From the NCBI GenBank assembly GCA_964344285.1, contig CAYFMM010000004.1, positions 109,526-173,525 on the forward strand: a stretch of DNA of 64,000 bases, given 5' to 3'. Each line of letters begins with the position of its first letter. Position 1 is the first letter of the stretch. This document shows, in pieces, positions 31,363-44,027 of this stretch. This DNA comes from an uncultured Methanosarcinales archaeon. GTDB taxonomy: Archaea; Nanobdellota; Nanobdellia; Woesearchaeales; GW2011-AR9. A program made the translations under genes and the position numbers. The notes below the pieces were generated by a model that was given only the letters and a program-made list of their open reading frames with translations, was not told the origin of the DNA and did not search any database.

Positions 31363-31791
31363 ATGATGGCTAAAAAAGTTGTAAGAAAAGCCGCTCCTAA
31401 GAAAAAAGCTGTGAAAAGAGCACCTGCAAAAAAGAAGGTAGCAGCTAAGAAAAAGGTAGTGGCAAAGAAGAAAGTCGCAACAAGAAAGAAGGTGGCTACA
31501 CGTAAAAAAGCAGCTGTTAAGAAAAAGGCTCCTGCAAAGAAAAAAGCAGCAGCAAAAAAGAAACCAGCAGCAAAGAAAAAAGTAGCAGCTAAAAAGAAAC
31601 CAGCGGCAAAGAAAAAAGCTCCTGCAAAGAAAAAAGCGGCAGCAAAAAAGAAAGTAGCAAAGAAAAAAGTTGTTAAGAAAAAGGCAGTTGCAAAGAAAAG
31701 AACAGCAGCAAAAAAGAAAACTGCAGCAAAGAAAAAAGCACCAGCTAAAAAGAAAGTAGCTAAGAAAAAAACAACTAAGAAAAGAAGATAA
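31363..31791 (+). CDS. Histone H1-like / Hc2-like Lys-Ala-rich protein
   Basis: Almost entirely KKK/A/P/V/T repeats (PAKKKAAAKKK); SD GAGGTG; mixed synonymous codons. Confidence 0.85.
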   Translation: MMAKKVVRKAAPKKKAVKRAPAKKKVAAKKKVVAKKKVATRKKVATRKKAAVKKKAPAKKKAAAKKKPAAKKKVAAKKKPAAKKKAPAKKKAAAKKKVAKKKVVKKKAVAKKRTAAKKKTAAKKKAPAKKKVAKKKTTKKRR

Positions 31792-39531: not shown

Positions 39532-39575
39532 GCCCTTTCAAAAGACTTAAATAATCTCTTGTACTATCTGTGAAT

Positions 39576-39878
39576 ATGTTAACTAAAGAAAAAATTATAC
39601 ACAAAATTGAACAAAATAAAGATAAAATAAAATCTTTTGGTGTAACTAAATTAATTTTGTTTGGCTCTTATGTTCACGGGACACAAAAAGAAAATAGTGA
39701 TATTGATTTATTAGTAGAATTTGACGATGGGAGGGGTTTATTTAATGATTATGTTCATCTACTTCATTTGTTGGAAGATTTATTCAAGAAAAAAATTGAT
39801 TTAGGTGAAGAGAAATTATTGAGAGAAGAATTAAAGCCTTATATCTTAGGGGGAGAAAAAATTGAAGCGAAGATTTGA
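39576..39878 (+). CDS. Minimal nucleotidyltransferase (MNT antitoxin)
   Basis: LFGSYVHG..SDIDLLVEF; TATA box 30 nt upstream of this ATG. Confidence 0.92.
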   Translation: MLTKEKIIHKIEQNKDKIKSFGVTKLILFGSYVHGTQKENSDIDLLVEFDDGRGLFNDYVHLLHLLEDLFKKKIDLGEEKLLREELKPYILGGEKIEAKI

Positions 39879-40209
39879 TTTATACCTTAAAGATGTTCTT
39901 AACGCCATAGAAAATGTTAAAGAGTACATTGGAGATCTTGATGTTGAAGATGTTTTAAAGGACCGTTTAAGAACCGACGCTATTCTACGTAATCTTGAGA
40001 TTATAGGTGAAGCTGTATCGCAACTACCAAAAGAAATCAAAGAAAAATATAAAGAAATCCCTTGGAGGGATATTAAGGATTTTAGAAACGTAGTTGCACA
40101 CCGCTATTGGAAGATTAATTTGGCTAGAATAGTTGATATTATTGAAAACAAACTGGATTCTCTTAAACAGAAAGTAGAGAACATTCTTATTAAAGAAAAA
40201 GATGCCTAA
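39862..40209 (+). CDS. HEPN (DUF86) ribonuclease toxin
   Basis: DAILRNLEIIGEA, IPWRDIKDFRNVVAHRY (RX4H). Confidence 0.93.
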   Translation: MKRRFDLYLKDVLNAIENVKEYIGDLDVEDVLKDRLRTDAILRNLEIIGEAVSQLPKEIKEKYKEIPWRDIKDFRNVVAHRYWKINLARIVDIIENKLDSLKQKVENILIKEKDA

Positions 40210-40831
40210 ACAAAAAATCAATAAAAATCATTTTAGAGTTGCAATCTTTGGTTCAGCAAGAACTAAACGCAATGACCCAGAATACAAAAAAATTGAAAAA
40301 TTAGCACAACTGATTGCAGAAGAAAACATTGATGTTGTAACAGGAGGAGGGCCAGGTCTAATGGATGCTGCAAGTCGTGGTCATCACAAAGGTAGAAAAA
40401 AAGGTAATCATGCTCACTCACTAGGTCTTACAATTAAACTTCCTCACGAGCAACATGATGGATATCATTTAGATGTCAAAGAAGACTTTGCAAAATTTTC
40501 AGGAAGATTAGATAAATTTATGCAACTCTCAAATGTGGTGGTTGTAGCTCCCGGTGGAATTGGCACAATTTTAGAATTTTTCTACACTTGGCAACTTATT
40601 CAAGTCAAACAAACCTGTGAAATCCCAATTATTATGGTGGGGTCAATGTGGAAAGGACTAATTGACTGGGTAAAAAAACAACCCTTAAGAAAAAAACTTC
40701 TCAACAAAGAAGATTTAAAGACAATTTACTTTACAAACACAAACGCACAAGCAATGAAAATTATTATGGAAGCAAAAAAGAGCTTTGAATCTGGTGAGCA
40801 TGTTTGCAGGAATATTGAAAAGTACAAGTAA
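40202..40831 (+). CDS. LOG-family protein (YgdH/PpnN-like)
   Basis: FGSAR, TGGGPGLM, PGGIGTILE. Confidence 0.9.
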   Translation: MPKQKINKNHFRVAIFGSARTKRNDPEYKKIEKLAQLIAEENIDVVTGGGPGLMDAASRGHHKGRKKGNHAHSLGLTIKLPHEQHDGYHLDVKEDFAKFSGRLDKFMQLSNVVVVAPGGIGTILEFFYTWQLIQVKQTCEIPIIMVGSMWKGLIDWVKKQPLRKKLLNKEDLKTIYFTNTNAQAMKIIMEAKKSFESGEHVCRNIEKYK

Positions 40832-41027: not shown

Positions 41028-41585
41028 TTATCTTTTCTTTTTCTTTGTAGCCTTTTTAGCAGGTTTCTTTTTTGTTGTTACTCTCTTCTTCGCTGCCTTC
41101 TTTTTCACTACTTTTTTCTTTGTAGCCGCCTTTTTCTTTGCAGGAGCTTTCTTTTTGGTAACTTTCTTCTTGCTTGTAGCCTTCTTTGCTGGTTTCTTTT
41201 TTGCTGCTGCTTTTTTCTTCACAGGTTTTTTTGCAACCTTCTTAACTGCTTTCTTTTTAGCGGGAGCCTTTTTCTTCGCTGTTGCTTTCTTCTTTGTAGC
41301 CACTTTTTTTGCAGTCTTTTTCACAACAACTTTTTTTGTAGGCTTAGCAACCTTTTTAGTGCCAACTGCCTCTTGTAATGCTTTAGGGTCAAATCCTACT
41401 AAAATTTTATCTTTAACCTCAATTACTGGAACGCCCATCTGTCCTGACTTTTCAATCATTGCATCTCGCGCCTTTACATCAACAGAAACATCATACTCCT
41501 TAAACGCAACATTGTTCTTTTTCAAAAACTCCTTTGTTTTAGCACACCATGGGCATGTTGGTGTAGTATATATTTTAATTGCCAT
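41028..41585 (-). CDS. Glutaredoxin (NrdH/YruB-like, CPWC) fused to a histone-H1-like Lys/Ala tail
   Basis: IYTTPTCPWC..SGQMGVPVI..VGFD, then about 110 aa of KKPAKK-type repeats. Confidence 0.88.
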   Translation of the reverse strand: MAIKIYTTPTCPWCAKTKEFLKKNNVAFKEYDVSVDVKARDAMIEKSGQMGVPVIEVKDKILVGFDPKALQEAVGTKKVAKPTKKVVVKKTAKKVATKKKATAKKKAPAKKKAVKKVAKKPVKKKAAAKKKPAKKATSKKKVTKKKAPAKKKAATKKKVVKKKAAKKRVTTKKKPAKKATKKKKR

Positions 41586-41743
41586 TTCTAATCACCTTCT
41601 TTTTTAATTAAACTATAATCACAATATTATTTGATTTATCTTAACCATACTTTCTAAATTTATAACTCTTTTGTTTTTCTTTGAACCCTACAAACAAAAA
41701 TTTATTAACTCCAACTTGTACTCTTTACAAAAAGAGGTTATCC

Positions 41744-43201
41744 ATGACAAAAAACTTAACTAACAAAAAGAAAAATTCTCTATCTCGTAATTCTAAAACT
41801 ACAAAAAAACCAAAACAATATGACGTAATAGTTATCGGTTCAGGTGGCGGCACAAAAATTGCATCACCTGCCTATCAACTAGGAAAAAAAGTAGCAATCA
41901 TTGAAGAAGCAAAATTAGGTGGGACTTGTCTTAACCGAGGTTGTATTCCTTCTAAAATGCTAATCCATCCAGCAAATGTTGCAACAATTATCAAAGATGC
42001 AAAAAAATTTAACATCAATGCAACATTTAGTTCAGCAGACATACAAAAACTTCTCAAACGAATTAACAAAGAGACAGATGGTGATTCTAAAAGTATTGAA
42101 ACATGGTATAAATCCCGTAAAAACTTTGGATATTACCATGGACACGCAGAATTTATTTCAGATAAAATAATCAAAGTAAATAATCAACTTCTCACTGCAA
42201 AAAAAATCTTTATTGCTACTGGTGCAAGACCTTTTGTTCCTCCAATCCCAGGACTAAAAGAGACTCCATTTATGACAAGCACACAAGCTCTAAGAAGTAG
42301 AACACTTCCTAAAAAGCTCCTTGTAATCGGAGGCGGATATATTGCGTGTGAGCTAGGCTACGCTTACTCAGCTTTGGGCTCAGAAGTTCACTGGTTGGTA
42401 CGAGACAAAGCTCTCCTTCGAAGAGAAGACGCTCAAGTTAGTCAAACTTTTACCAAAATCTTTGCTAAAAACCATAAAGTTCACTTTAACACAAATACTA
42501 CAAACGTATCTTACAACAAAAAAACAAAACAATTCACATTAACTCTAGAAACAACAAAGGGCAATCAAAAAATAAAGAAAAGACTAGTTGGTGATGCTCT
42601 TTTAGTTGCAACTGGAGTAAAACCAAATTCTGAGCTGCTTGGATTAGAAAACACTTCTATTAAAACTAATAAACGCGGTTTTATTAAAGCAAATTCTTAT
42701 CTTCAAACAACAGTAAAAGATGTCTATGCTCTTGGTGATGTTGTTGGCAATTACATGTTTCGCCATTCTGTAAACTTTGAAGGAGAATATCTTTTTAACG
42801 AACATTACTATAAAAAAGGAAAAATTACACCCATCAAATATCCTCCAATTCCTCATGCGGTTTTTACACACCCCGAAATTGCTGGTGTTGGTCTAACTGA
42901 AGAACAACTTCAAGAGAAAAAAATTCCTTATGTGGTTGGATTTAATCCTTACAAAAAAAGTGCGATGGGATCAGCTAGGCTTAGCAAAGATGAATTTGTC
43001 AAATTATTATTCCATAAAAAAACAAGAAAACTTCTTGGTGCACATATCTTGGGTGAAGAAGCGTCTAACATGGTTCATCTTTTAATTTATGCAATAACCA
43101 ATGGTGCAACAGCTGATAGCTTACTTAACATGATTTATATTCATCCAGCCCTGCCAGAAATTGTACGAAATGCGGTAAGAAATGCAATGGAAGAATTTTA
43201 A
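41744..43201 (+). CDS. Flavoprotein disulfide reductase (dihydrolipoamide dehydrogenase / mycothione reductase family)
   Basis: GSGGG, GGTCLNRGCIPSK, IGGGYIACE, YALGD, HPALPE; SD GAGGT. Confidence 0.9.
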   Translation: MTKNLTNKKKNSLSRNSKTTKKPKQYDVIVIGSGGGTKIASPAYQLGKKVAIIEEAKLGGTCLNRGCIPSKMLIHPANVATIIKDAKKFNINATFSSADIQKLLKRINKETDGDSKSIETWYKSRKNFGYYHGHAEFISDKIIKVNNQLLTAKKIFIATGARPFVPPIPGLKETPFMTSTQALRSRTLPKKLLVIGGGYIACELGYAYSALGSEVHWLVRDKALLRREDAQVSQTFTKIFAKNHKVHFNTNTTNVSYNKKTKQFTLTLETTKGNQKIKKRLVGDALLVATGVKPNSELLGLENTSIKTNKRGFIKANSYLQTTVKDVYALGDVVGNYMFRHSVNFEGEYLFNEHYYKKGKITPIKYPPIPHAVFTHPEIAGVGLTEEQLQEKKIPYVVGFNPYKKSAMGSARLSKDEFVKLLFHKKTRKLLGAHILGEEASNMVHLLIYAITNGATADSLLNMIYIHPALPEIVRNAVRNAMEEF

Positions 43202-43787: not shown

Positions 43788-44027
43788 TTACAAATTCTCC
43801 TCAATATATGCAATGATATCTGCAGACTCACCGATCCACTTGCCATCGATATTAATGACTGGCACAGTTCCAACACCGCTCTTCTCTGCAATCTCTTTTC
43901 GTTGTACATCTTCCCTATCGTGGGAAACATTCACTTTTTCATACTCAAGTCCCTTTGCATCTAAAACACTTCTCACTCTTGCACAAAAGGGACACGTTTC
44001 AAATTGATATAATATTATCGTTGCCAT
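43788..44027 (-). CDS. Glutaredoxin-like protein
   Basis: LYQFETCPFC..GTVPVI..WIGESADII. Confidence 0.92.
   Translation of the reverse strand: MATIILYQFETCPFCARVRSVLDAKGLEYEKVNVSHDREDVQRKEIAEKSGVGTVPVINIDGKWIGESADIIAYIEENL

Follow-up and report, generated by a model that had tools for sequence, protein, structure and literature searches.

Within a 64,000-nucleotide stretch of the genome of an uncultured Methanosarcinales archaeon (Woesearchaeales in the GTDB lineage; assembly GCA_964344285.1, contig CAYFMM010000004.1, positions 109,526 to 173,525; hereafter the window), a small redoxin with a long lysine-rich, H1-like tail is encoded head to head with a flavoprotein disulfide reductase (FDR). 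This locus raises two questions: what the tail does, and whether the reductase belongs to the redoxin. On balance, we favour a reading in which the two genes serve separate tasks. The redoxin would be a normal member of its family carrying a lineage-specific tether tail and recharged by a thioredoxin reductase (TrxR), and the FDR would be a glutathione-disulfide reductase. The elements of the locus are as follows (window coordinates):

41028-41585, minus strand: redoxin open reading frame (ORF), 185 residues, from the ORF translation
41361..41585, minus strand: glutaredoxin-like redoxin domain of the Cp9/YruB type, residues 1-75, from TIGR02196, Pfam Glutaredoxin and AlphaFold
41028..41360, minus strand: polycationic tail, residues 76-185 (110 residues), plus the stop codon, from composition and codon use
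41586..41743, no strand: divergent intergenic region of 158 bp with both ribosome-binding sites (GAAGGTGAT for the redoxin, GAGGT for the FDR), from the sequence
41681-43201, plus strand: FDR ORF as listed, from a TTG at 41681
41744..43201, plus strand: class-I FDR, 485 residues, from Pfam Pyr_redox_2 and Pyr_redox_dim

The folded part of the redoxin appears to be an ordinary small dithiol redoxin of the Cp9/YruB type, a predicted thioredoxin-like protein-disulfide reductase. The protein scores 96.2 bits against TIGR02196 (GlrX_YruB), above the curated cut-off of 88.55, and residues 3-60 match Pfam Glutaredoxin with an E-value of 1.7e-19. AlphaFold2, supplied with an alignment of 21 homologues, returns a confident glutaredoxin fold for residues 1-74 (pLDDT >90; beta-alpha-beta-alpha-beta-beta-alpha). 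The model places the CxxC dithiol, in the active site T-P-T-C11-P-W-C14, on this fold as expected of YruB/Cp9; the cis-proline motif is GVPV, and the nearest PDB entries are the small Grx/Trx-like redoxins 7c10 and 3zij. On inspection, the class I glutaredoxin motifs CPYC, TVP and GG-x-DD are absent from the redoxin, which has CPWC, GVPV and VGFDP instead, and it scores below the cut-offs of the Grx3 models (54.7 against 90 and 48.6 against 129). It departs from the single-domain size of YruB proteins (about 75-80 residues) owing to the tail, with 185 residues against 76-95 in its orthologues. The ATG is preceded by the GAAGGTGAT ribosome-binding site, and an oligo-T tract lies 3' of the stop. 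The first-pass annotation of this DNA, made from the letters alone, had described a CPWC glutaredoxin fused to about 110 residues of lysine-rich, H1-like sequence and encoded head to head with a CxxxxC flavoprotein reductase, and both descriptions hold.

The tail is extreme in composition. Its 110 residues comprise 56 K, 22 A, 12 V, 11 T, 6 P, 2 R and 1 S, with no D or E, giving a net charge of +58; in the long ORFs of the genome, 8% of residues are lysine, so that such a run is far from chance. AlphaFold2 renders the tail as unstructured coil (pLDDT 50-57). Polyadenosine tracts are prone to slippage, and in the tail AAG accounts for 50% of the lysine codons compared with 23% genome-wide. This enrichment argues for selection on a truly translated sequence as opposed to slippage on A-runs. 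The tail does not qualify as a member of known H1-like families, scoring 19.6 bits against a cut-off of 40 for HC2 (PF07382) and 24.1 against 80 for NF038053, both as low-complexity matches.

How widespread is the tail? Of the best redoxin matches in 29 genomes belonging to the same family (one per genome, 52-66% identical), 24 stop 0-11 residues past the domain, and the other five carry basic tails of 14-41 residues. An even draw of 251 genomes from the order, searched at E <= 1e-20, gave 130 matches, whose open frames span 75-118 residues except for three of 138-165. The frames of 158 and 165 residues were rejected as tails, the excess being upstream non-coding sequence, and the stretch fetched for the third, of 138 residues, gave no redoxin frame; no long tail was thus found on the redoxin among these 130 matches. 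The 110-residue tail therefore appears to be unique to this genome. Short tails do occur more widely. Among the closest homologues in a collection of 5.8 billion public proteins (102-324 residues), K/R tails reach just 23-45 residues, one of them N-terminal, and 12 of the 149 nearest representatives at 50% identity clustering bear a basic extension of at least 15 residues, eight at the C-terminus and four at the N-terminus. Individual examples are C-terminal in P0001-P0011 and N-terminal in P0010, P0060 and P0064. Short basic extensions thus arise repeatedly and at either end of the redoxin, which fits a role based on charge and not on a folded structure. The neighbours of the tailed public homologues vary and include malic enzyme, nitroreductase and VKOR; neither FDR nor TrxR is among the neighbours examined.

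Comparison with relatives suggests where the tail came from. At the same junction, the orthologue in the family genome G021 ends ...ALGTVVKKK, and the redoxin of the window continues as ...AVGTKKVAKPTKK..., so that the tail seems to have expanded from a short basic C-terminal stub of the form GT..KKK. An internal duplication of about 138 nt (72% identity), which is old, is the sole repeat signal that BLASTN detects in the tail DNA, and a tandem-repeat origin finds little in Tandem Repeats Finder, which reports just an 18-bp unit in 1.9 copies. Two other routes were considered and rejected. Recent copying from another tail gene is not borne out by BLASTN against the genome, where the similarity of about 70% to the gene of a stand-alone H1-like protein, to the tail of the transcription factor TFE and to a tailed 156-residue protein is compositional. 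Fusion with a conserved downstream H1-like gene is likewise discarded, as no K-rich ORF lies 3' of the redoxin in the 29 relatives.

Two side observations concern other fusions of this domain. A C-terminal PDZ domain is a far commoner partner of YruB-type glutaredoxin domains, found in the large group of public proteins P0013-P0047 (about 173 residues). In the genome itself, a fifth glutaredoxin-like paralogue with a CEWC motif (C3:145324-145605; L013:1495-1779) ends in an acidic tail, KAEDAKSDAKEEEEN, opposite in charge to that of the redoxin.

The redoxin is not alone in carrying such a tail. The genome (1.29 Mb in 14 contigs, about 94% complete) was scanned for K/R-rich, acid-free segments of at least 30 residues spaced by A, P, V or T, and 16 of about 1425 non-overlapping ORFs have one, the redoxin and 15 others. 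One of these is also in the window:

31363..31791, plus strand: stand-alone H1-like protein of 142 residues, nearly all (A/V/P)KKK repeats, of the same composition as the redoxin tail

No Pfam family was found for this protein, and its gene is about 70% similar to the redoxin tail DNA, a compositional resemblance. Elsewhere in the genome, TFE (TFIIE_alpha; C5:109852-110733) ends in a K/A/T tail of 108 residues, and a 779-residue protein (C1:16364-18703), taken to be topoisomerase I from its N-terminal sequence alone, bears one of 38. The set further includes a candidate nucleoid protein. Also in it are the 156-residue protein, which has a duplicated small module and a tail of 96 residues, and two KaiC-like ATPases with N-terminal tails. 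An NAD(P)HX dehydratase (Carb_kinase) with a 42-residue tail is present in two identical copies (C1:275835-276815 and C1:280955-281935); lying 5 kb apart, they point to a repeat of about 5 kb. The genome is archaeal by its gene content, which includes a TFIIE-alpha-type TFE and an HFX_2341-like regulator. Because several tail carriers handle DNA, nucleic acid is favoured as the target of the tails, and binding of nucleic acid by the redoxin tail is plausible. At least two carriers are plain enzymes, which speaks against a special device for redox control at the nucleoid.

The alternative that survives best is that the tail has no specific target. It could be a near-neutral low-complexity expansion, serving at most solubility or as an 'entropic bristle', and reflecting a lineage-wide tendency in an AT-rich, lysine-rich genome. 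The confinement of the long tail to one genome, its variation from 0 to 41 residues in relatives, the internal duplication and the occurrence of the same composition on unrelated proteins, including a metabolic enzyme, are all compatible with drift. The regular A/P/V/T spacing, the lack of any acidic residue over 110 positions and the AAG enrichment are harder to reconcile with it, as are the repeated, independent acquisition of basic extensions at either terminus within the redoxin family and the presence of such tails on several DNA-handling proteins (TFE and the presumed topoisomerase I). We therefore regard a near-neutral tail as unlikely, but as the alternative that most deserves to be kept in view.

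Turning to the reductase, it most likely starts with the ATG at 41744, preceded by a GAGGT Shine-Dalgarno sequence; this sets the two divergent start codons 158 bp apart. The protein has the general features of a class-I FDR, with a redox disulfide in C62-L-N-R-G-C67 (CxxxxC) and a C-terminal HPALPE dyad motif. It scores below the cut-off of every NCBIfam equivalog. The best of these is the Lpd model NF004944 (PRK06292.2-2, 'dihydrolipoyl dehydrogenase') with 585 bits against a cut-off of 619, and TIGR01350 gives 362 against 408.8. The mycothione reductase (Mtr) equivalog gives 385 against 501, the canonical glutathione reductase (gor) models 314.5 against 480 (NF004776) and 259 against 556 (TIGR01421), and the high-molecular-weight TrxR/TGR model TIGR01438 175 against 476. 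The C-terminal Cys-Cys or Cys-Sec centre of high-molecular-weight TrxR/TGR is absent from the FDR, which ends ...RNAVRNAMEEF with no cysteine. Its best PDB match is the mycothione reductase 8qcj (268 bits). Where the second strand of the NAD(P)H-binding fold ends, VRDKALLRRED of the FDR aligns with GRSQRLLRHLD of the NADPH-dependent Mtr, and an arginine aligns with the glutamate of the NAD-dependent Thermus dihydrolipoamide dehydrogenase (E3; LEYMDRILPTMD), so that the acidic residue of the NAD type is missing. The cofactor fingerprint is of the NADPH type (R..R).

Before its FAD-binding GxGxxG motif, the FDR has a basic N-terminal extension of 24 residues, MTKNLTNKKKNSLSRNSKTTKKPK (41744-41818). 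Its orthologues begin right at M-K-x-(Y/F)-D, and their alignment starts only at FDR residue 16-28. Both genes of the divergent pair have thus acquired basic extensions that are peculiar to this genome.

The genomic context of the orthologues points to what the FDR reduces. A scan of 185,579 species genomes gave 70 orthologous loci. A few, including the closest, are labelled Woesearchaeota (59-61% identical); most are from Omnitrophota, including MAGs (metagenome-assembled genomes) labelled Planctomycetales (52-59%), and the others are from Chlamydiota (51-54%), Leptospira (49%) and Kiritimatiellales (47-49%). Identity of 50-60% across Woesearchaeota, Omnitrophota, Chlamydiota, Leptospira and Kiritimatiellales suggests cross-domain transfer. 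Counted within 6 kb of the FDR orthologue, the following genes recur:

24 of 70 loci: gshA (PF08886, 417 bits)
20 of 70 loci: gshB (GSH-S_N + GSH-S_ATP)
17 of 70 loci: CPYC glutaredoxin
17 of 70 loci: BolA
13 of 70 loci: CGFS Grx4

E1, E2, LplA or LipA occurs within the same distance in none of the 70. The typical order in Omnitrophota is FDR, transporter, gshA, gshB, grx, bolA, grx4 (L102:5977-12252, L117:4576-10800, L126:1642-5400). The FDR thus combines the NADPH-type R..R fingerprint with an association with glutathione genes, and its Lpd/Mtr-like clade, named dihydrolipoyl dehydrogenase in databases, is probably a non-canonical glutathione reductase.

Parts of the same system are present in the archaeon, one of them close to the FDR:

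43788..44027, minus strand: CPFC class-I-like glutaredoxin of 79 residues with a TVP motif, from Pfam GST_N_3 and Glutaredoxin

This protein is 32% identical to the CPYC glutaredoxin of the Omnitrophota glutathione cluster, and at the closest orthologous locus (G015) a glutaredoxin of the CPFC type is the sole one adjoining the FDR. The genome also encodes two BolA-Grx4 (CGFS) pairs (C2:117057-117620 and C12:2182-2612), 53-58% identical to those of Omnitrophota. Searches of the genome, which covered GCS2 and, by tblastn, GshA of the PF08886 type and GshB, found no gene for glutathione synthesis; the E. coli-type GshA (PF04262) was not searched for. Genes for using and recycling glutathione are thus present and none for making it were detected, a pattern that fits uptake from a host; with neither gshA nor gshB, the thiol would need to be scavenged. 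Based on these observations, we consider the CPFC glutaredoxin the likelier functional partner of the FDR, via glutathione.

Is the FDR nevertheless the redoxin's own reductase, as the first-pass annotation proposed? In that model the glutaredoxin is anchored to the nucleoid by its tail and is served by the divergent FDR as its dedicated NAD(P)H reductase, the two making up a self-contained redox module on DNA. Across 61 relatives, the FDR occurs in 20, the redoxin in 52 and low-molecular-weight TrxR in 60, and 21 of the 37 family genomes that keep the redoxin lack the FDR. Immediate adjacency of redoxin and FDR was seen in none of the 20 FDR loci of other relatives. What lies beside the redoxin in several genomes is a different flavoprotein: in G008, G056, G052 and G040, which represent four families of the order, a redoxin orthologue of 78-86 residues is directly upstream of a 301-residue TrxR-like protein with a CxxC motif, the two genes being translationally coupled (gap or overlap <=5 nt), and five further genomes have them 1.1-2.5 kb from each other. 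Conserved association links the redoxin with TrxR-like genes and the FDR with glutathione genes. The archaeon itself has a TrxR of 306 residues (C5:40076-40993) with CATC and HRRD motifs. Class-I FDRs that lack a C-terminal redox centre act on small disulfides, not on proteins, and the FDR, ending in AMEEF, is one of these.

Some of the evidence weighs against separate tasks for the two genes, and part of it speaks for the dedicated module. Redoxin and FDR share the 158-bp divergent control region here, and they lie on one contig, 2.4-10 kb apart, in five relatives (G001, G012, G016, G010 and G032); some functional link between them, for example through glutathione, is possible. In G017, of the same family and estimated to be 100% complete, the FDR is the only Pyr_redox_2 protein, no TrxR is detected at E <= 1e-40, and the redoxin is kept (62% identical). 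This reflects either a gap in the MAG or replacement of TrxR by the FDR in that lineage. The basic N-terminal extension of the FDR, paralleling the redoxin tail in this genome, could be added to the case for a module. The redoxins of the TrxR-like operons are more distant orthologues (39-55% identity), and the archaeon's genome does not contain that TrxR paralogue. Furthermore, the argument for polyanion binding is the charge of the tail, and the assignment as a glutathione reductase draws on bacterial synteny at 52-59% identity for a protein that scores under every canonical glutathione reductase model. All relatives compared are MAGs. Set against these points, the dedicated module has to explain a redoxin that is often kept without the FDR, an adjacency confined to one genome, orthologues of the FDR that cluster with gshA and gshB, and a tail that is not conserved; the first-pass annotation had itself made the model depend on the tail being present in most orthologues, and 24 of 29 family orthologues have no tail, with no long one found in the wider order. 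We conclude that the head-to-head layout marks what looks like a loose thiol-redox neighbourhood, not a dedicated pair, and that the module as first proposed is improbable. As a separate observation, the TrxR of G001, the closest-but-one relative, is split into two frames by one TAG (C10:31959-32844; residues 1-145 and 155-306) and may be a pseudogene or an assembly error.

The neighbourhood suggests a third possibility for the tail, namely that it docks the redoxin on anionic membrane beside CcdA/DsbD-type and VKOR proteins, where it would donate electrons from the cytoplasm to an extracytoplasmic thiol-disulfide system. Genes for CcdA-like, DUF3179, VKOR-Trx and DoxX proteins lie within 4-5 kb of the redoxin, and in G001 VKOR, Trx-like and CcdA-like genes fall between redoxin and FDR. 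The short-tailed homologues P0003 and P0004 (L090:5001-6376; L092:3358-5342) directly adjoin genes for VKOR and DsbD-like (SfLAP) membrane proteins, recalling the CcdA and VKOR genes near the redoxin of the window. The tail has no amphipathic or lipid-anchoring element, and soluble DNA-binding proteins carry tails of the same type, which also exists as an independent H1-like protein. Membrane docking is therefore rather doubtful. Elsewhere in the window, at 39570-40831, are overlapping frames for a nucleotidyltransferase (102 residues) and a HEPN/DUF86-like protein (115 residues), followed, with an 8-bp overlap, by a LOG/SLOG-family gene (40202-40831).

It is very unlikely that the FDR is a genuine dihydrolipoamide dehydrogenase, either orphaned or working on host-derived lipoylated substrates. 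The name is suggested by the best NCBIfam model and by many E3 enzymes in the PDB (E-values of 1e-60 to 1e-71), with the NCBIfam score falling short of the cut-off. No lipoyl domain (PF00364), GcvH (PF01597) or LplA/LipB (PF03099) was found in the 94%-complete genome, and the same searches matched in 13-14 control genomes. True E3 genes, which adjoin E1, E2, LipA or LplA in G044, G051, G037 and G021, are just 29-34% identical to the FDR. The FDR was also considered as the E3 of a hidden complex and rejected on the lack of lipoyl domain, GcvH and LplA and on the NADPH-type fingerprint. The doubt voiced in the first-pass annotation that the reductase works on lipoamide is thus borne out. Finally, an assembly or sequencing artefact joining a 78-residue redoxin gene to a separate H1-like gene, conceivable in a MAG, where low-complexity repeats misassemble easily, can hardly account for a continuous frame that has a single ribosome-binding site and is followed by an oligo-T tract, for short basic stubs at the same junction in orthologues such as that of G021, for the lack of a stand-alone H1-like gene 3' of the redoxin in 29 relatives, and for 23-45-residue tails on homologues from independent assemblies.

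We return to the reading that we favour, a tailed but otherwise normal redoxin beside a separate glutathione-disulfide reductase. In one lineage, a short basic stub would have grown into a disordered polycation of 110 residues that acts as a non-specific electrostatic tether and concentrates the redoxin on nucleic acid. As family and synteny suggest, the low-molecular-weight NADPH-dependent TrxR would reduce the redoxin, as in the characterised Cp34/Cp9 system and the operons of relatives, and the reduced redoxin would in turn reduce protein disulfides or a peroxiredoxin. Its +58 tail would hold it to polyanions; in so small a cell these are most probably DNA or RNA, with polyphosphate, as for AlgP (PMC9239181), or anionic lipids near CcdA and VKOR as alternatives. 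The FDR, using NADPH, would serve the CPFC glutaredoxin and the two BolA-Grx4 pairs by reducing glutathione disulfide (or a closely related compound), and the glutathione that it recycles would be scavenged and not made by the cell.

Each half of this scheme has a counterpart in known systems. According to PMC3720550 (citing Reynolds, Meyer & Poole 2002), the Cp9 (YruB) gene of Clostridium pasteurianum is flanked by the TrxR-like cp34 and the peroxiredoxin cp20, and together their products form a peroxide-reducing chain. The redoxin belongs with Cp9 in TIGR02196, both having a glutaredoxin-fold domain of about 75 residues with a CPxC dithiol, and in relatives the redoxin gene shares an operon with one for a TrxR-like flavoprotein, much as cp9 does with cp34. 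It differs from Cp9, a single domain of 75-80 residues, in its polycationic tail of 110 residues and in having no TrxR-like or peroxiredoxin gene next to it in the window.

For the tail, the closest functional analogue of a polycation-tethered thiol enzyme is PfnPrx (MCP1), the nuclear peroxiredoxin of Plasmodium falciparum, which associates with chromatin genome-wide by chromatin immunoprecipitation sequencing and whose tail has been likened to H1 C-termini (PMC3064226). Both it and the redoxin are thiol enzymes with a thioredoxin fold whose C-terminal region is rich in lysine and highly positive; unlike the redoxin, PfnPrx is a eukaryotic peroxiredoxin with an acidic middle region, and the two tails share no homology beyond composition. 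DNA binding in vitro was never shown for the PfnPrx tail (PMC3064226). The style of the repeats (AKKKAPAKKK), the disorder and the very high positive charge of the redoxin tail recall Hc2 (PF07382), the Burkholderia H1-like proteins (NF038053) and AlgP. These are nucleoid or granule proteins and not enzymes, and the resemblance is again one of composition. Tails rich in K, A and P that resemble H1 are also found in bacteria on the actinobacterial HupB/MDP1 proteins. An H1-like tail can target polyphosphate as well as DNA, as AlgP illustrates (PMC9239181).

For the FDR, mycothione reductase (8qcj) and canonical glutathione reductase offer the same class-I architecture with CxxxxC, HPAL(P/A)E and the NADPH-type R..R, and differ in that the FDR falls below both equivalog cut-offs; mycothiol is not known in archaea (PMC7278568). 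The FDR is 49% identical to its orthologue in Leptospira idonii and 52-59% identical to those in Omnitrophota, which stand beside gshA, gshB, grx, bolA and grx4. Unlike these bacteria, the archaeon has neither gshA nor gshB, and the bacterial enzymes are likewise uncharacterised candidates. Leptospira shows glutathione reductase activity without an annotated gene for it, and the best candidate put forward is an ORF close to its gsh/grx cluster (PMC10294975); this ORF, LIMLP_08950, is probably an orthologue of the FDR, judging by gene order alone. We found no description in the literature of a glutaredoxin-H1 fusion, in agreement with the first-pass annotation, which knew of no characterised example, nor of lysine-rich tails in DPANN archaea or of a glutathione-associated FDR in Omnitrophota.

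What the locus means depends on which of its parts is considered. By itself, the fusion of redoxin and tail is a minor matter, a one-genome elaboration of a common small redoxin within a wider habit of adding H1-like tails. If the tails are functional, the 16 ORFs that carry them, from TFE to a metabolic dehydratase, would provide a compact set for studying tail function in cells with genomes of about 1 Mb. A more ambitious version, to which we give little credence, has the tail keep an active redoxin of the Cp9 type bound to the chromosome, or to RNA, in an ultrasmall DPANN archaeon for disulfide repair and peroxide defence at the nucleoid, with the FDR, as a non-canonical glutathione reductase, feeding the redoxin via host-derived glutathione; were it true, the nucleoid-held redoxin would be an archaeal counterpart of the chromatin-bound peroxiredoxin of Plasmodium. 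The reductase is the more useful lead. Its clade, annotated as Lpd and distinguished by an NADPH-type fingerprint and by glutathione gene clusters, yields a candidate for the 'missing' glutathione reductase of Leptospira, and the combination of FDR, glutaredoxin and BolA-Grx4 without gshA and gshB suggests that a DPANN archaeon recycles scavenged glutathione.

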